DNA from: Promethearchaeota archaeon
GTDB taxonomy: Archaea; Asgardarchaeota; Lokiarchaeia; Sigyniarchaeales; Promethearchaeaceae
Assembly (NCBI GenBank): GCA_016933055.1
Contig: JAFGBS010000027.1
Span: forward strand, 111,072-143,071
DNA: 32,000 bases
Direction: 5' to 3'
Under the pieces are notes generated by a model, which saw nothing but the letters and a program-made list of their open reading frames with translations, ran no database searches and was not told the origin of the DNA. A program made the position numbers and the translations under genes. Below are positions 2,754 to 17,187 of the stretch, piece by piece (the first letter of the stretch is position 1; each line of letters starts with the position of its first letter).

Positions 2754-4004
2754 TCAAAATTGTATTCTTTCTCTCATTTTTCTTAAAAACCATTCAACAC
2801 TATATCTATAATCAATTTTTCTCCAAAAATAGAGAATGACGTACCAAATGAAACTAGTTAAGAGTAGGAAGCCCGTCCATATAAAGAACTCCTCGGAAAT
2901 AGGTTTAAAATATAGGTTTTGTAGAATTCGAAATAAAATTATTGAGGCAAAAGACTCGAAAATATAGATTGTGAGTGATGTCGAGCTAAACATCTGAAAA
3001 AACCGTACAATTCCTGGATTTCTGTCTTGCCCCTTATTCTGGTAGTTTTTAAAGATCAAATAAAATATTGCAATAAATAGAATTTGTGAACCTAAATTAA
3101 GTAGATGGAGTGGTAATGGCACATAGGTACTCGTGTATCCGGCCATCATATCAAAACCGAGGAACAAAATAATTATATATGCAACTATACACGAAATCCC
3201 AACTAAAAATAAAATTAAAAATGCAGATCTTTCAAAACCGTCTTTATTAAGATTATACCCGATGAAAGCTCCACAAAAACCGAAGACAATAAGTGGAAAT
3301 AAGCTAAATCTATTATGAGTTAATTTCAACAGAAAAATTAGCAGAAAAAGTTGATTATTATCATATAAATTATTAAAAAATTGGTTGGGATTTTCAATCC
3401 AAATATCCAAAAAAACGGAAACTGCTATGGTAACTAGCAAAGCAATTCCAAAACACCCATAAAATCTACTTTTTTGTTTCTCTTTCCTCTGATATACAAA
3501 ATATCCAAGCAACGAAAGAAAAATAATAATTACCCCTATTGATTCTAACATTCCTGTTGTCGAATAATGCATTATGTTTAGAGATGAAAATTTCCACTGT
3601 TCTAACGTACCAGTCAATAAAGAATACGTTGCTTCTCCAGGATGTTCAGTACTCTTTGGTGATAAAAAACTTAACCAGATATAATGAATGATTATTAAGA
3701 GAAAACCCGATATTCCACGTTGTAAAAAATATCGACCAGCTCGAAAATCTTTCCTAGATAAATAGTCCTGTTGGGTTCGAAACACAAACACAATTCCCGA
3801 AAGAACGCAAAAAAAACTCCCCCACAGTGAGAAAAACACAAAAGGTGTGGCTATAATTCGTACTATTATCGGACTTGTGGTCATAATTTCTTCAAATAAG
3901 GGTTTGTATTGATTTACCACCCGATATAAAAATGCATGAAGAATTATCATATATAGGATTGCTAGACCGCGAGAAAAATCGATGAATACTAATCTTTTTC
4001 CCAT
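2754..4004 (-). CDS. Multi-pass membrane protein, DUF1624/DUF418 (HGSNAT/acyltransferase-like)
   Basis: N-terminal RLVFIDFSRGLAILYMIILH motif, about 10 hydrophobic segments and a C-terminal SLTIYIFE...YSVEWFLRK motif. ATG at 4004 is preferred over GTG at 4013. The stop codon abuts the deoA stop with no gap. Confidence 0.7.
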   Translation of the reverse strand: MGKRLVFIDFSRGLAILYMIILHAFLYRVVNQYKPLFEEIMTTSPIIVRIIATPFVFFSLWGSFFCVLSGIVFVFRTQQDYLSRKDFRAGRYFLQRGISGFLLIIIHYIWLSFLSPKSTEHPGEATYSLLTGTLEQWKFSSLNIMHYSTTGMLESIGVIIIFLSLLGYFVYQRKEKQKSRFYGCFGIALLVTIAVSVFLDIWIENPNQFFNNLYDNNQLFLLIFLLKLTHNRFSLFPLIVFGFCGAFIGYNLNKDGFERSAFLILFLVGISCIVAYIIILFLGFDMMAGYTSTYVPLPLHLLNLGSQILFIAIFYLIFKNYQNKGQDRNPGIVRFFQMFSSTSLTIYIFESFASIILFRILQNLYFKPISEEFFIWTGFLLLTSFIWYVILYFWRKIDYRYSVEWFLRKMRERIQF

Positions 4005-4016
4005 GATTTCCACGGT

Positions 4017-5843
4017 TTATATTGAATTTTCTGTACTCATTTGTAATTCATATAGATCCACTATTTCATCAACCTTTGAGCAATCATAAATGTCCTTTTC
4101 ATCTCGCACCCGTTGGAAAACGGGAAATCTAACAGAATAACCGGAGTCATGCACCTGTCCATTATAAAATTTTCCTACGTCCGCTTTTTGGCTAATGGTT
4201 AATTCATCTCCAGCAATCTCGATCACAATACTAGGTTTAAACCAAATATCGGGATTTTCTGTATTGCAAACCACATTTTCAGGGCGGGTCACTGTTTTAA
4301 TAAATTGGAATGCATTCCAAAAGTATTCAATATCCTCATCACTAAATCCTGTCGCAACTCGGGTGAGAAATTCAAATTTCTCATTTTCTTCATTAAATAC
4401 TGCAACCAAAAGCGTTCCAAATCGATTAGCACGCCTTCCCTTCCCCATAAGTGCACCAATCGGAACTACATCAATAGTATCTTTCATTTTTCCCGCTTCA
4501 AGGGATTTTAATTTTATCCACAAAAATCCCCGATTACCTGCTTTGTATACAGATTCAGATGGATCGATAGATTTATTCATAGTGCCTTCACAATTCTTTG
4601 CTCTAGCTTCTTTGAAGAAATCTACTAATTGTTCGGTGGTATTTATGGTGGTTTGAGATACTAAACGAATATTTTTAGTTTCTCTTGTAATTTTTTCTAA
4701 TAATGAACGACGTTCTAGCATAGATTTATCCATTACAACAATTCGTTTTCTATCATCTTCGAGATATAGGAGATCAAATAGAAATAGACAAACGGGAACT
4801 TTTTCGATGAACTGTTTAACGTCATATTTACGTCTTCGAGTGCTTAAAACTTGGAAGGGTAATAAATTTTCGTATAAAGGGTCCATAGCCACTGTCTCAC
4901 CTTCTAAAATGGCATTTTCCGCCTGAATATTTTCTAGAATTGCTTGCTGGATATCAGGATACTGTTCGGAAATGTTTTTTAATCTCCTAGAAAATAAAGC
5001 AACTGAACGCCCTTTTTTATGGATTTGTAAGCGTTCTCCATCTAATTTATATTCACTTACACATTTTCCTCCTAGCTTATCCAGAATTTGAGTATATTCT
5101 AATCGGGAAGCTAGCATCATTCGAATTGGTAATCCTACTTGAATATGAATAGATTCTAGACCTGATAAACCATTTTCCCGGATGATCTGTCCAATATATC
5201 CGAGATCGGGGTAAATATTATAAGTTTTTTCAATTATTTCTCGGTATTTCTTATCTTGGAGAAATGCAACAGCGAGAGCATCCATAATAGTAGCATCAGA
5301 AACTCCAACGCGCATAGATGAATTGAGAATACGTATAAGGTATTTTGCCATACTAGGGGAACATCTGGCGAGTAACCAGCGAATTTTGTCATATTTACGA
5401 CCTAACGACTTTGTCCCGCTAACTGCTGCTATTTCTGTTAATTTTTCGTAGATGTCTTTAATAGAAAGAGTTTCGTGTTGAATTCCCATGAATGCAGTAA
5501 TTTGCCCTTGCTTCGTTTTCCCTCCCGCAAGGCTAGCTGCAGTTTCTCCCAAATCACCGGTTTTTACCATTAATGATTTCACTAGAGATGCATCTGCGGC
5601 ATAATGGGAAGAAATTGCCTCTAATAATGTTTTTTCTGCTAACCCAAGTTTAGGTTGTTCAGATATTTCTGAATATAATGTTCCTTGTGTGAGATAAATT
5701 ATTTTTTCGAGATCACCTTTATCTAAAGTTTCGGGATTATCACGTATGGAGATAAACAGTTCTGAAAGAATATCCAAGATTTCCAATCGTTTGGATGTGG
5801 ATGAAATTCTCTCGTAATATTGCACAAGGGTTTGAAATTCCAT
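4017..5843 (-). CDS. lig: ATP-dependent DNA ligase (archaeal/eukaryotic ligase I type)
   Basis: Motif I EYKLDGERLQIH, III LEGETV, IIIa LFDLLY, IV EGTMNK, V WIKLK and VI RFPVFQRVRDEK. Confidence 0.97.
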   Translation of the reverse strand: MEFQTLVQYYERISSTSKRLEILDILSELFISIRDNPETLDKGDLEKIIYLTQGTLYSEISEQPKLGLAEKTLLEAISSHYAADASLVKSLMVKTGDLGETAASLAGGKTKQGQITAFMGIQHETLSIKDIYEKLTEIAAVSGTKSLGRKYDKIRWLLARCSPSMAKYLIRILNSSMRVGVSDATIMDALAVAFLQDKKYREIIEKTYNIYPDLGYIGQIIRENGLSGLESIHIQVGLPIRMMLASRLEYTQILDKLGGKCVSEYKLDGERLQIHKKGRSVALFSRRLKNISEQYPDIQQAILENIQAENAILEGETVAMDPLYENLLPFQVLSTRRRKYDVKQFIEKVPVCLFLFDLLYLEDDRKRIVVMDKSMLERRSLLEKITRETKNIRLVSQTTINTTEQLVDFFKEARAKNCEGTMNKSIDPSESVYKAGNRGFLWIKLKSLEAGKMKDTIDVVPIGALMGKGRRANRFGTLLVAVFNEENEKFEFLTRVATGFSDEDIEYFWNAFQFIKTVTRPENVVCNTENPDIWFKPSIVIEIAGDELTISQKADVGKFYNGQVHDSGYSVRFPVFQRVRDEKDIYDCSKVDEIVDLYELQMSTENSI

Positions 5844-5901: not shown

Positions 5902-6852
5902 TTATTTTTTTAATGCATCTATAAGGGTATAGAATGTAGTTTGGATATTACTTTTTATTGTTGGATCGATATCATTGAAAGATCCCTCGTGAAATTTTAC
6001 TTTTCCCTCCTCAATATGGAATTTAGCTATCGGACCATCCATATATTCAATACTGACGGTTTTTTCATCAAGACGCGATACCCAAATATCTTTAAAGTGA
6101 GAAAGTATAGCCATAACCACGCATCCTTTTTGCACCGATTCCATCGGGTCCTTAATTATGAAAAGTGGTGCAGGTTCAGGAACTGCATCATCATCTGCAT
6201 ACTCTGAAGCAATTATTGGGGGTTCTTCTACCGTTAATTCTTGTTCTTCTTTAGTTTCAAGAGGATCAGTCTTAGGGATTGGTGTAGGATCTATGAAAGG
6301 AACACTGACAGGGGGTTCAGGGAAGGATTCAGGTTCTGATGTAACTTCGTGTGCTGATGCTCCTTGTGAGGAAGCAGAAATTTGTGTCGCAGTAGATTTC
6401 GGTTCAACAATAGGCACTTCAATAGGTTGTGCTTGTTCAAAATGTTCCTCTATCGGAAGAGGTTCACTGGGACCTCCGAATGTGATGACAAATCCTCCTG
6501 CATCAGTCACTGATCGGGACAGTAATTCCATAAATTTATTATTCAATTCATCGGTTTCAGAGTCTCTCCCAATTTTTCGCTCATCTATCTCATAAATAGT
6601 ATCTAATCCCCTGCCCACAATCGATTTGCCAATAGTATATCCATGCCCCTTTAAACTCTGAGCTTGACGAAGTGCAGTTCTTTTGCTCACTAATCCCCGC
6701 TTTGCTCCGAACCAGAGCCAAACTGCCATATTCTCCTCATCTAAAACCATTACAATATTTTCTGATTTCAGATTTCCTTTACTCCATTCGACGGGACTAC
6801 TAACGCCACCATCTTCCACTAAAAACATAAGTGCGAACGTTCTACTTGTCAT
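5902..6852 (-). CDS. Single gelsolin/villin-like domain protein with a Pro/Glu-rich linker and an unknown C-terminal domain
   Basis: LKSENIVMVLDEENMAVWLWFGAKRGLVSKRTALRQAQSL fits the gelsolin repeat core. Start moved to ATG 6852 (MTSRTF) because the ORF-track start at 6945 overlaps the upstream gene. Confidence 0.7.
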   Translation of the reverse strand: MTSRTFALMFLVEDGGVSSPVEWSKGNLKSENIVMVLDEENMAVWLWFGAKRGLVSKRTALRQAQSLKGHGYTIGKSIVGRGLDTIYEIDERKIGRDSETDELNNKFMELLSRSVTDAGGFVITFGGPSEPLPIEEHFEQAQPIEVPIVEPKSTATQISASSQGASAHEVTSEPESFPEPPVSVPFIDPTPIPKTDPLETKEEQELTVEEPPIIASEYADDDAVPEPAPLFIIKDPMESVQKGCVVMAILSHFKDIWVSRLDEKTVSIEYMDGPIAKFHIEEGKVKFHEGSFNDIDPTIKSNIQTTFYTLIDALKK

Positions 6853-13518: not shown

Positions 13519-14133
13519 GTGAATCCGAAAAATAAAAGTCCTGAAACATCTCATTCGTCGGTACGGGAATATTTCCAAGGGGATACACTGAAATCCTATA
13601 CTCATTCGAAATCTATGATGCACATTCAAGAAAAAATGACCTTACGCATACTTCAGCTTTCTGGTGCGGAACCACCTGCCTTAATATTAGATTTAGGAAT
13701 GGGGGCGGGATTTTCTAGTGTCCCCTTGTACATGCGTGGATTCACAATAATTGGAATGGAATTACTTTGGAAAATGCTAATAGAATATCCTATTTCTGAA
13801 CTCAATCCAATAGCGGGAAATATGATGCATTTAGTTTTTCGAGAGAATTTATTTGATTACATATTCTCGGTATCCGCATTTCAATGGACCTATCGTCATA
13901 AAGGTAGTTTTGAACTGATACGGTTTGATGAATTTGCCAAATCACTTAATATGATTTTAAAAATAAAGGGTGTATTAGTTTTCCAACTCTATGAATCTTC
14001 AGAATCAATCTTAGATATGATTTATTCTGTATTTATTCGACATGGATTTTCAGGGAAATATATCCTTGATAATCCACAATCCAAAAAGAAAAGAAAAACC
14101 TATCTTTATCTTCGCAAAGTAAAATCTATATAA
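13519..14133 (+). CDS. Class I SAM-dependent methyltransferase, Bud23/WBSCR22-like (paralog A)
   Basis: GTG start. SPE...Y...HIQEKMTLR, LDLGMGAGFS, FRENLFD, SVSAFQW, FQLY and GFSGKYILDNPQSKKKRKTYLYL are collinear with remembered yeast Bud23 motifs (RPE, HIQAKMTLR, SISAIQW, QFY, GFSGGLVVDDPESKKNKKYYLVL). Confidence 0.8.
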   Translation: MNPKNKSPETSHSSVREYFQGDTLKSYTHSKSMMHIQEKMTLRILQLSGAEPPALILDLGMGAGFSSVPLYMRGFTIIGMELLWKMLIEYPISELNPIAGNMMHLVFRENLFDYIFSVSAFQWTYRHKGSFELIRFDEFAKSLNMILKIKGVLVFQLYESSESILDMIYSVFIRHGFSGKYILDNPQSKKKRKTYLYLRKVKSI

Positions 14134-14148
14134 ATAAGGTATTATACC

Positions 14149-14787
14149 ATGCCGAAAAAGGAATCACTGGATCGAGATTATTACTTCGGAGAAAGAGCGG
14201 AATTTTACGCAAAATCTAAATGGATGGCGCGGAACCAAATTAAATCTACCCGGAGGGCACTGGAACTACTGGAAAATGAAAAAATCGGTGGAATTATTGC
14301 CATGGAACCTCATAATATGTTAATATTAGACATAGGATGTGGTTCTGGTTTTAGTACACAAATGATAGAAATGAATGGTTTTCAAACAATAGGAATAGAT
14401 AACTCTTTTGATATGTTAGAACAAAATCGGAAGACATCTCTTCCTATAAGCAGAAATGTAGTATGTGGAATAATTGAAAAACTCCCCTTTCGAAACAACT
14501 TATTTGATGCAATGATAAGTATATCAGCATTTAATTTCATCTTGGAACATGTTTCATTACATAATAAAAAAGATCTCTTAAAACTGGTTGCCATTCAAAT
14601 CTCAAATTTGTCGAAAGATCACGGAAGGGTAGTTATCGAGTTTTATCCAAAAAAAGAAGAAATCCCACTTTATATGGAGGCATTTAAACAATTTTTTGAG
14701 GGTGGCTTGGTAATAGATAATCCAAATCAGCGGAAAGAACAGAAATTTCTTATATTAAAAATAAAAAAAAATAATGAAATATTTTGA
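14149..14787 (+). CDS. Class I SAM-dependent methyltransferase, Bud23/WBSCR22-like (paralog B)
   Basis: RRALELL, ILDIGCGSGFS, GIDNS, PFRNNLFDAMISISAF, EFYPK and FEGGLVIDNP are collinear with Bud23 (LRALELL, ILDIGCGSGLS, PFRAGSFDAAISISAI, QFYPK, FSGGLVVDDP). Confidence 0.8.
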   Translation: MPKKESLDRDYYFGERAEFYAKSKWMARNQIKSTRRALELLENEKIGGIIAMEPHNMLILDIGCGSGFSTQMIEMNGFQTIGIDNSFDMLEQNRKTSLPISRNVVCGIIEKLPFRNNLFDAMISISAFNFILEHVSLHNKKDLLKLVAIQISNLSKDHGRVVIEFYPKKEEIPLYMEAFKQFFEGGLVIDNPNQRKEQKFLILKIKKNNEIF

Positions 14788-14918
14788 ATTTCGAACTTAT
14801 TTTTATTGGAAGTTCTCGACAAAAACTCCTCCAATCAAAAATTTTTTAATTTATGCGTAATTAGGGGCATATCATACTATTAGTACTCCATGGCAAATAC
14901 TTGAGCTCCATGGTGTGA

Positions 14919-15251
14919 ATGTTAAGGAAGCGATTTAAAATAATTCAAAAAGCACGTGTAAGATTAATGAGCGCAAACTTGTCTGATCTTCAAAAAGTCT
15001 CAGATGAGATTGCCCAAGTTGTAGAAAAAACTCAAGACAAAATGTACGGTCCTATTCGCCTACCCACTAAAAGACTGCGCTTAACGACCCGAAAATCTCC
15101 TTGTGGTGAAGGAACGAACACTTGGGAGCATTATGAAATGCGTATACATAAAAGGATCATCGATGTCTTAGCACAAGATAGATCGATGCTTTTAATTATG
15201 AAAATAAAGATTCCCGAATCAGTTATAGTTGAAATTGAGCTGATGGAGTAA
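14919..15251 (+). CDS. rps10: 30S ribosomal protein uS10 (S10p)
   Basis: QKARVRL...GPIRLPTKRL...TRKSPCGEGTNTWEHYEMRIHKRIID. The exact start is uncertain (ATG 14919 or ATT 14943). Confidence 0.97.
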   Translation: MLRKRFKIIQKARVRLMSANLSDLQKVSDEIAQVVEKTQDKMYGPIRLPTKRLRLTTRKSPCGEGTNTWEHYEMRIHKRIIDVLAQDRSMLLIMKIKIPESVIVEIELME

Positions 15252-15269
15252 AACGGAGCGAAATAAAAA

Positions 15270-15617
15270 ATGAGTGATGAGTATAGTTCTGAAACAGACG
15301 TTGATAAAATTACTGTGACAACAAAAATCAAGAAATTAGATCGAAAATACGGAAAAGTTACTAATCTTGAAACTAAAGTCCGCGATCCGTTTATTCCTCC
15401 CAGTATTGAAACGAAAATCCGAGAAACGTATATAAAAAATCGTGGATTTACCCCTAATGATGTTGCTATTAAAAATGATATTCGAGTTTCGGCAGCGAAA
15501 AAACTTTTAGAAAAGATGGAAAAAGATGGTTCAATTGAACTCGTGACTTCCACCAGTCGACTAAAAGTTTATAGAGGGACGGCAGCTAAATCCTCGAAAG
15601 ATGCTGAAGAAGAATAA
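15270..15617 (+). CDS. rps25e: 30S ribosomal protein eS25 (S25e)
   Basis: Basic 115-aa winged-helix protein with TPNDVAIKNDIRVSAAKKLLEKMEKDGSIELV...LKVY matching the S25e pattern; 18 nt downstream of rps10. Confidence 0.82.
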   Translation: MSDEYSSETDVDKITVTTKIKKLDRKYGKVTNLETKVRDPFIPPSIETKIRETYIKNRGFTPNDVAIKNDIRVSAAKKLLEKMEKDGSIELVTSTSRLKVYRGTAAKSSKDAEEE

Positions 15618-15666
15618 CAACTTTTTTCTACAATCAAAAACCTTCTTACCTTATTCTAAAGAACAA

Positions 15667-15831
15667 CTACGCTAAAAGCCTTTTTTCCACTACGTCAAGC
15701 ACTTATTAGGTGGAAAAATGGTTTTTTATCGTAGGTGCACCTAAATCCTATAAGCATGGCGTTTTTGACGCTCGGTTGTGAATTACGTTGATTTAACGTT
15801 AACAACCTACCATTTGTAGCCTTAAGGAGTG
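15667..15831 (+). ncRNA. Candidate structured non-coding or cis-regulatory RNA element of unknown class
   Basis: A long imperfect hairpin at 15667-15734, a second hairpin at 15774-15807, and loop-to-downstream complementarity. GC is 69/180 (38%) over 15661-15840 versus 36/150 (24%) over 15841-15990. G-U pairs favour the plus strand. Confidence 0.3.
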
Positions 15832-15999
15832 GGATATATATTGATTACTAAAAATGCAACAGTTATAGATATTTTTTATAGTATTGAATACAATCAGAGA
15901 GATCTTTAAGATATTATTCGACTGTAGAAATAAGTAGCTATTGAAAACAAATACTAATATGTGAATAAATTCGTAGTATAACAACAGGATTGAGTATTG

Positions 16000-17187
16000 A
16001 TGTCTGAATTTTTTAACCAATTACTTGAGAAAGTGAACTTGGAAGAGGGAGTTGAGGGGATTCGCCAAATTTTATTACAAATCTACCGAAATGGTTCTAT
16101 TTCTGTGAAAAAATTATCACGATTGACTCTTATTCCCGTACCTCTTGTATCCAAAATCGTAAATGTCTTGAGTGAACAAAAACTCTTATCTCGTTCGAAA
16201 AACGGCATCCAATACTGGGAACACGGAATGAAATTCGTCGAAAAAGAATTTGGGTTTTTTGGATATGGTACTCAAAAATGTCCTACCTGTAAAAGTCGGC
16301 CAGTGTATGTATCCCCCATGTTTGATGAGATGTTTGAAATCTTAAATTCAATATTTGCAAAACGTCCTTCGGTAGACACAACTTTAGATCAATCCAAAAA
16401 TACTGTCGAAACTGCCATCCAGCGTGCATGTTATCTCTATGAAAAAGGTGCATTGGAGGGTAAACGCGTTCTCTTCATCGGAGATGATGATTTTACGTCA
16501 GTTTGTGTGGGAATGATGTCCAAGATCTTTTTCCCAAATGATCCTTTCATACTCATCCCTAAATCCATTACCGTGATAGATATCGATGCACGAATTGTAG
16601 AAAGTATTCAAACTATCTTTAGAAATAATAAACTGACTATTCAATGTATACAGTACGATCTCCGAGAACCAATACCTTCCGAGTTACTTCACTCATTTGA
16701 TACGATCATCACAGATCCTCCCTACTCTCCAGATGGATTAGGATTATTTCTCTCACGAGCTTTGTCATGTATGGATTCGGGTGTAAATAAGGATATTTTT
16801 TTATCTTTTGCACATCGATCTCCTGATCAAACCATGAAAATACAATCAATTATGACACAAATGGGATTATCGATAGTAGAAATCATACCACGATTTAATA
16901 AATACGAAGGATCAGAGACTTTGGGAAATGAAACACAAATGTTTCACCTAAAGACTACCAGTTTTAGTCAAGAATTGGTTCTGGCTTCTGCTAAGGCAGA
17001 TTTGAAAATCTATACTGGGGAAACTCATCCCTATATCCGTCAATTCCAGTGTATGTCATGTAATGCAATTATTGAAGTCGGACCAGATAAAGAGTATCAA
17101 ACAATTGAAGAATTAAAAGGAGCAACATGTCCGAATTGTAGTAGTAAGAAGTTTAAACTTATCGGACGGAATTTAATCTTACATTAA
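16000..17187 (+). CDS. BpsA-like branched-chain polyamine synthase (COG1568/DUF43 type) with N-terminal HTH and Cys-pair extensions
   Basis: LDQSKNTVET...R, IGDDDFTS, DIDARI, YDLREP and TDPPYSPDGLGLFLSRA motifs. Also an N-terminal HTH-like segment, CPTC and C-terminal CMSC...CPNC. ATG at 16000 follows TTG at 15997. Confidence 0.75.
   Translation: MSEFFNQLLEKVNLEEGVEGIRQILLQIYRNGSISVKKLSRLTLIPVPLVSKIVNVLSEQKLLSRSKNGIQYWEHGMKFVEKEFGFFGYGTQKCPTCKSRPVYVSPMFDEMFEILNSIFAKRPSVDTTLDQSKNTVETAIQRACYLYEKGALEGKRVLFIGDDDFTSVCVGMMSKIFFPNDPFILIPKSITVIDIDARIVESIQTIFRNNKLTIQCIQYDLREPIPSELLHSFDTIITDPPYSPDGLGLFLSRALSCMDSGVNKDIFLSFAHRSPDQTMKIQSIMTQMGLSIVEIIPRFNKYEGSETLGNETQMFHLKTTSFSQELVLASAKADLKIYTGETHPYIRQFQCMSCNAIIEVGPDKEYQTIEELKGATCPNCSSKKFKLIGRNLILH

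Follow-up and report, generated by a model that had tools for sequence, protein, structure and literature searches.

Does the guanine-N7 methylation step that Bud23 and its partner Trm112 carry out in eukaryotic 40S maturation have a counterpart in archaea? A locus in a lokiarchaeal genome (Promethearchaeota archaeon, assembly GCA_016933055.1; 3.76 Mb, 91% complete) raises this question. In the window, the 32,000-nt stretch of contig JAFGBS010000027.1 analysed here, four co-directional genes lie on the + strand with gaps of 15, 131 and 18 nt: the methyltransferase genes MT-A (13519-14133; 204 aa, GTG start) and MT-B (14149-14787; 212 aa), followed by the ribosomal protein genes uS10 and eS25. 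An earlier note, made from the letters of this DNA alone, had described a methyltransferase pair 15 nt apart and then uS10 and eS25, and the open reading frames (ORFs) are placed exactly so. We read the locus as two old paralogues of the Bud23/WBSCR22 family that serve as small-subunit rRNA guanine-N7 methyltransferases. We give this reading as a whole a probability of about 0.6, and we are more confident of it for the A clade than for MT-B.

Two minimal members of the Bud23 family

Sequence searches single out Bud23 as the closest characterized relative of both proteins. In Pfam, generic models alone match MT-A and MT-B (Methyltransf_11/25; PF08241). The best PDB sequence match is yeast Bud23 (4qtt_B) in each case, with E 1e-20 over residues 18-198 of MT-A and E 7e-17 over residues 11-203 of MT-B, and human BUD23 is also among the top matches for both. 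These alignments take in the C-terminal GF.GG..DxP..K..K block. The next unrelated PDB methyltransferases are far weaker (E 2.5e-3 for MT-A, 8e-9 for MT-B), and the two proteins share 33% identity with each other. When 5.8 billion proteins were searched with MT-B, the matches passed from Asgard sequences directly to eukaryotic Bud23 proteins bearing PF12589.

Structure, conserved positions and phylogeny point the same way. Both proteins have a class I S-adenosylmethionine (SAM) core with the GxGxG motif I (D53, G55, G57 and G59 in each). The AlphaFold model of MT-B has a predicted local distance difference test score (pLDDT) of 89.5, and its top eight PDB fold matches are all Bud23/WBSCR22 chains (template modelling (TM) score 0.85-0.90 by target, root-mean-square deviation 2.1-2.7 Å), followed by a clear drop to generic methyltransferases. 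Eukaryotic Bud23 has 63 signature positions with conservation of at least 85%; of these, the clade of MT-A (LokiA) keeps 42 and that of MT-B (LokiB) 38, compared with 19 in a generic outgroup. In an 84-row tree (LG+C20 with posterior mean site frequencies, with only three archaeal methyltransferases as outgroup), the Bud23 family, with MT-A and MT-B inside it, is split from generic methyltransferases with support 100/99. The likeness to Bud23 is thus far beyond chance. The earlier note had claimed a full-length resemblance that included the C-terminal block, and had named phylogeny as a check on it; PDB search, fold matches, signature positions and tree all bear the claim out.

Ordinary small-molecule methyltransferases of the UbiE/BioC kind, resembling Bud23 only in a generic way, are a very improbable explanation and already strongly disfavoured. 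Some homologues do carry a UbiE-type label from the Joint Genome Institute (JGI), and there are weak NCBIfam matches to BioC/UbiE. Those matches, however, score 37-47 bits against cut-offs of 155-185, far below the equivalog threshold, and JGI names other homologues 18S rRNA (guanine1575-N7)-methyltransferase. The resemblance is also full-length and specific, and the clade is well separated in the tree. MT-A and MT-B are true members of the Bud23 family, minimal in size at about 205 aa and without the eukaryotic C-terminal tail. They have company in this form: many of the 219 cluster representatives found in an exhaustive profile search at E 1e-30 or better are about 190-215 aa long and lack that tail.

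The A/B split and the ribosomal protein neighbours

MT-A and MT-B belong to two deep archaeal subfamilies. Archaeal group I unites LokiA with Micrarchaeota-type proteins (82/87); it is the canonical archaeal subfamily, of which MT-A is a divergent member. Group II (97/80) holds a clade of LokiB and Heimdall/Hod proteins (100/99), together with Odin-type, Aenigmarchaeota-type and Woesearchaeota-type proteins; MT-B belongs to the derived subfamily common to Loki and Heimdall/Hod archaea. An approximately unbiased (AU) test rejects a single clade of the MT-A and MT-B types (p-AU 0.0066), for a grouping that was chosen after the tree was seen. A and B each mirror the family structure of the window's order, so both were present in the order's ancestor. 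The earlier note had taken the locus for a duplicated form of one gene. Two deep subfamilies stand in its place: a recent tandem duplication is rejected by the AU test, and in most of the order the two genes lie apart.

Each subfamily keeps its own ribosomal protein neighbour, and this is the main new point of the analysis. In the family we label f3, where A and B are unlinked, A stands head-to-head with eS25 in all 11 genomes, and uS10 lies downstream of B on the same strand at eight of the nine loci with enough flank. The head-to-head arrangement of A and eS25 recurs in family f2, in a Hermodarchaeota genome and in 6/9 genomes of family f1; uS10 also accompanies B on the same strand in most f1 genomes. 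Within f1, which includes both cultured strains, uS10, B and A share one strand, and eS25 and a BpsA-like gene diverge from A. The window's genus and a genome of another f1 genus (G002) have the order A, B, uS10, eS25, BpsA-like. The linkage of A with eS25 and of B with uS10 is therefore conserved across the order, even where A and B are unlinked, and it outlasted the rearrangements that parted A from B. The related genomes in these counts are non-independent samples. The tie to small-subunit head genes that the earlier note had drawn from this one locus, with a synteny comparison as its check, extends in this way to the whole order.

Ribosomal protein genes also adjoin Bud23-like genes outside the lokiarchaeal order. 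The Odin-type gene stands head-to-head with uS7 (L050:5258-5944 (-) with 6012-6599 (+)), a Woesearchaeota copy lies 400 nt downstream of L7Ae (L069:3198-3569 (+) with 3971-4525 (+)), and eS6 is two genes upstream of the Bud23-like gene at Micrarchaeota locus L064. Of these neighbours, uS7, like uS10 and eS25, is a protein of the small-subunit head, which holds the guanine that Bud23 targets. A natural fusion brings the two subfamilies into one polypeptide: on a 5.6-kb JGI metagenome contig, a 412-aa protein (P0136) has a B-type module followed, after a lysine-rich linker, by an A-type one, with a RIO1-family kinase gene 38 bp upstream of its gene. Rio kinases act in late small-subunit maturation.

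Other gene arrangements were seen around members of the family. In f3 a radical SAM gene (PF04055) usually sits between B and uS10. It follows MT-B directly and encodes 356-378 aa with an N-terminal CxxC..CxxC segment (L035:6662-7732 (+), L037:6713-7849, L049:6683-7819, L047:4866-6002 (-) and L039:4892-6028 (-)); in the window this gene does not adjoin MT-B. In two Micrarchaeota genomes the Bud23-like gene overlaps by 4 nt the end of a gene for an M24 peptidase with a Creatinase_N domain (L064:2895-3935 and 3932-4588; L066:2994-4001 and 3998-4597). Another protein, P0154 (382 aa), joins a DPANN-type Bud23 module to a second, unrelated methyltransferase-like C-terminal half.

The remainder of the window locus consists of the two ribosomal protein genes, two spacers and a downstream gene. 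Directly past the MT-B stop codon, the spacer at 14788-14918 contains a short hairpin, GAACTT/AAGTTC around a T-run, which, read from the sequence, could end a transcript and leave uS10 and eS25 with a separate start. The uS10 gene (14919-15251, +; S20e type) matches PF00338 with 88.8 bits and TIGR01046 with 125 bits. The eS25 gene (15270-15617, +) is divergent, scoring 28.0 bits against a PF03297 cut-off of 28.8; its orthologues in related genomes exceed that cut-off (35.2 and 29.3 bits). A 379-nt non-coding spacer with the palindrome TAGGTGCACCTA follows (15618-15996), without an Rfam match, and Rfam and tRNA scans of the window as a whole found nothing. Next comes a gene for a BpsA_C-domain protein of the branched-chain polyamine synthase type (15997-17187, +), with a MarR-like winged helix at its N terminus and a zinc ribbon at its C terminus. 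The succession of eS25 and the BpsA-like gene is kept throughout f1.

A predicted Trm112 complex and the proposed rRNA target

The genome encodes a single, unusually long Trm112. The one PF03966 match is a 230-aa protein encoded on another contig (L001:1390-2082 (-), contig C5). About 150 inserted residues separate its N-terminal LACP segment from its C-terminal C..C.RWYPI..TIP segment, the two halves of the zinc knuckle. A long Trm112 of 207-236 aa is present in 31/31 relatives, so a search suggested in the earlier note has yielded one gene, conserved across the order. The archaeal classes in the literature comprise proteins of 60-80 aa, proteins of 130-140 aa and methyltransferase fusions (PMC5372719), and the Trm112 proteins found here are longer than these.

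MT-A is predicted to bind this Trm112. A model of the complex gave an interaction score from aligned errors (ipSAE) of 0.91, with 0.00 for the best control; the mark it reached is also reached by 58/80 solved complexes and by 2/110 mismatched pairs. At least 82% of contacts agreed between runs, and the partner had a pLDDT of at least 84. In the model, residues 96-101 of MT-A contact residues 196-203 of Trm112, which is the beta-zipper mode of Bud23-Trm112 (PMC5372719). As the complex resembles the Bud23-Trm112 complex already solved, the success of the model speaks for likeness and not for binding as such.

We make the following proposal for what the two enzymes do. MT-A, the canonical type, would pair with the long Trm112 by the usual beta-zipper and methylate N7 of the universally conserved G on the P/E-site ridge of the 30S head, equivalent to G1338 of E. 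coli and G1575 of yeast; it would do so on late pre-30S particles. MT-B may likewise work on the head of the small subunit: it could recognize the same site in an altered way, modify a second nucleotide, or be chiefly an assembly factor. We infer the rRNA substrate, the 7-methylguanosine (m7G) product, the timing and the role of MT-B; the m7G product is a strong prediction. The genome's own 16S rRNA bears the conserved GGAAUCCCUAGUAAUCG block, within which we take the Bud23 target position to lie. Since this block is universal, it does not discriminate between hypotheses.

A more ambitious version goes further and is, in our judgement, unlikely. It describes a lokiarchaeal two-enzyme module for head maturation, in which the canonical Bud23-Trm112 would set the m7G on the P/E ridge and the remodelled MT-B would add a second mark to that pre-30S head or serve there as a checkpoint without catalysis. 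Both enzymes would cooperate physically, as the natural B-A fusion beside a Rio kinase gene suggests, and the eukaryotic Bud23 step, including its need for the protein rather than for catalysis, would be of archaeal descent.

Several observations weigh against the reading of MT-A and MT-B as rRNA guanine-N7 methyltransferases, and we set them out here with the explanations they favour. Both proteins end directly after the catalytic domain, with no match to PF12589, the C-terminal extension WBS_methylT; as this tail is missing from all archaeal members, it is more plausibly something added in eukaryotes than a trait by which to define the catalytic family. The linkage to ribosomal protein genes is circumstantial. 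No archaeal 16S rRNA analysed has been reported with m7G at the Bud23 site (PMC5372719, PMC6144793); the archaeal rRNAs analysed for m7G included no Asgard or DPANN rRNA.

The presumed pocket of MT-B adds to these points. In the B clade, Y22, Q32, SxS, FYP and the C-terminal block are retained. Every LokiB and Heimdall/Hod member nevertheless reads NF where Bud23 has QW after strand 4, and E where it has Q157 before FYP, at sites that are invariant in eukaryotic Bud23, and MT-B of the window has I at the D99 position. Judged by the general layout of class I methyltransferases, the NF/E positions (Q121/W122/Q157) would line the substrate pocket; the target of MT-B may thus differ from that of Bud23.

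One or both proteins could therefore be Bud23-derived enzymes with another substrate: a different nucleotide in rRNA or tRNA, or the ribosomal proteins encoded next to them (eS25 in the case of A, uS10 in that of B). We regard this as unlikely. Besides the changed pocket residues, it can draw on the attachment of each paralogue to one particular ribosomal protein gene and on reviews that report no m7G at the site in the archaeal rRNAs studied (PMC5372719). The A clade, however, keeps nearly all Bud23-specific blocks. LokiA proteins retain RPE at the N terminus, SKSMMRIQEKIT.RALELL, SISALQW, QFYPK and IDNP..KKRKIFL, and the family-specific blocks RPE, Y22, Q32, SISAxQW, QFYP and GF.GG..D.P..K.KK.YL are kept in full. 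Fold and full-length similarity favour an rRNA enzyme as well. The Odin-type and DPANN copies adjoin other ribosomal protein genes (uS7, L7Ae, eS6), and with neighbours so varied a role at the level of the ribosome fits better than methylation of one protein.

MT-A of the window is itself the most divergent member of its clade, with changes at SAM-motif positions. It has SPE where the clade has RPE, QLYE (P160E) where the clade has QFYP, and D77E and D99N in addition. The branch leading to the window copy of A and that of another genome of the same genus (G001) has a length of 0.54, compared with 0.20 for B; the copies in the window and in G001 share about 60% protein identity. In the G001 orthologue (L024:3072-3695 (-)), codon 100 reads TAA, an in-frame stop, in place of the window's GAA (Glu); the stop is a true nonsense allele or stems from misassembly of that genome bin, which is 76% complete. 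Together, the SAM-motif changes and the in-frame stop suggest that MT-A may be under relaxed constraint here.

Taken to its end, this would make MT-A of this genus a decaying gene or a non-catalytic scaffold and MT-B the sole working enzyme, which we consider quite unlikely. The long branch, the three SAM-motif substitutions (D77E, D99N, P160E) and the G001 stop codon speak for it. Yet the window ORF is intact and retains GxGxG, Y22, Q32, SxSAFQW and the C-terminal block, binding to Trm112 is predicted, and an assembly error would account for the stop.

The distribution of the family is patchy and bears both on function and on descent. All 41 close relatives have the family, mostly in two copies each, and both cultured Loki strains, Promethearchaeum syntrophicum and Lokiarchaeum ossiferum, have the A-B pair. 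Across 301 genomes of the phylum, it occurs in 98/101 of the window's order, in 2/2 of another family of the class, in 3/4 of the family taken as Odin-type and in one Heimdall-named genome; the other Asgard families sampled gave no match (for example 0/71, 0/27, 0/19 and 0/14). A strong match was found in 15/201 sampled genomes of the Micrarchaeota phylum. Among the matches listed in a genome scan with two peptide patterns, which is not a census, Bud23-like genes occur in Micrarchaeota, Aenigmarchaeota and Woesearchaeota. With this spread the family is not Asgard-specific. Its absence from the matches in most Asgard families sampled further means that it cannot be essential for archaeal 30S assembly generally, a further point on the opposing side.

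Such a distribution is also what horizontal transfer could leave behind, and the archaeal genes need not be ancestral to eukaryotic Bud23. They may have come from a stem eukaryote or moved among DPANN and Asgard lineages that share habitats, an explanation to which we assign a low probability. In its favour are the scatter over the window's order, Odin-type, a few Heimdall/Hod and Micrarchaeota-phylum genomes with many Asgard families lacking matches, the pairing of LokiA with Micrarchaeota-type proteins and not with LokiB, and a Micrarchaeota protein that is 40% identical to yeast Bud23. On the other side, eukaryotic Bud23 forms one clade (98/89) with no archaeal sequence within it, all archaeal forms lack the eukaryotic tail, and the relationships within A and within B match the families of the order, so both are old there. 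AU tests on the placement of eukaryotes were uninformative (p 0.49 with group I, p 0.43 with group II). The earlier note had seen in the locus a candidate Asgard precursor of the eukaryotic step; this may still be so, but the tree cannot pick the archaeal group nearest to eukaryotes and the family extends to DPANN.

Relation to known systems and meaning

The closest known system is the 18S rRNA m7G1575/G1639 methyltransferase of eukaryotes, yeast Bud23 and human BUD23-WBSCR22, which works with Trm112/TRMT112 (4QTT, 4QTU, 6G4W, 7WTN). The Loki proteins resemble it in their class I fold, in full-length identity of 27-35% and in the family blocks from RPE, Y22 and Q32 through SISAxQW and QFYP to GF.GG..D.P..K.KK.YL. 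Contact with Trm112 is predicted to use the same strand pairing, and the genes adjoin those of small-subunit head proteins, which fits the Bud23 target site. Unlike Bud23, the Loki proteins lack the PF12589 tail and come as two paralogues instead of one, the B type has NF/E for QW/Q157, and the Loki Trm112 is about 100 aa longer than its eukaryotic counterpart.

Other systems are more distant. The Trm112 holoenzymes of Haloferax volcanii (with Trm9, Mtq2, Hvo_0019 and others; PDB 6F5Z) share, as in the arrangement proposed here, one small zinc-knuckle activator among several class I methyltransferases of the translation apparatus (PMC6144793), and Hvo_0019 is a distant fold match of MT-B (TM about 0.6). 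The Bud23-like proteins of DPANN and Odin-type archaea are likewise minimal, at about 190-215 aa, and often have ribosomal protein genes close by. They occur as one copy, whereas the Loki order has both subfamilies, each with its own conserved ribosomal protein neighbour. RsmG (GidB), the bacterial 16S m7G527 methyltransferase, performs the same chemistry on small-subunit rRNA, but it belongs to an unrelated subfamily, has another target site and no Trm112 partner, and is not among the matches.

According to reviews of work on Trm112, archaea lack a Bud23 homologue, and m7G is not known at this 16S site in archaea (PMC5372719, PMC6144793); PMC6144793 finds no orthologue of Bud23 in H. volcanii or among archaea generally. 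Large orthology screens caught only generic methyltransferases (PMC3919561; supplement of PMC8481954); through these, BUD23 was assigned to the last universal common ancestor, then moved to the last eukaryotic common ancestor after a domain-architecture filter. In a study of Asgard ribosomal protein clusters, uS10 stands alone, with no mention of a methyltransferase neighbour. Our literature search found no paper that names Bud23 together with Asgard, Lokiarchaea or DPANN.

If MT-A and MT-B are true Bud23 orthologues, one step of eukaryotic 40S maturation, together with its dependence on Trm112, would already have existed in archaea, and a P-site rRNA modification would be predicted for Asgard ribosomes. 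Because both cultured Loki strains carry the A-B pair, this prediction is directly testable. The two-subfamily system would also allow canonical active sites to be compared with remodelled ones in a natural setting.

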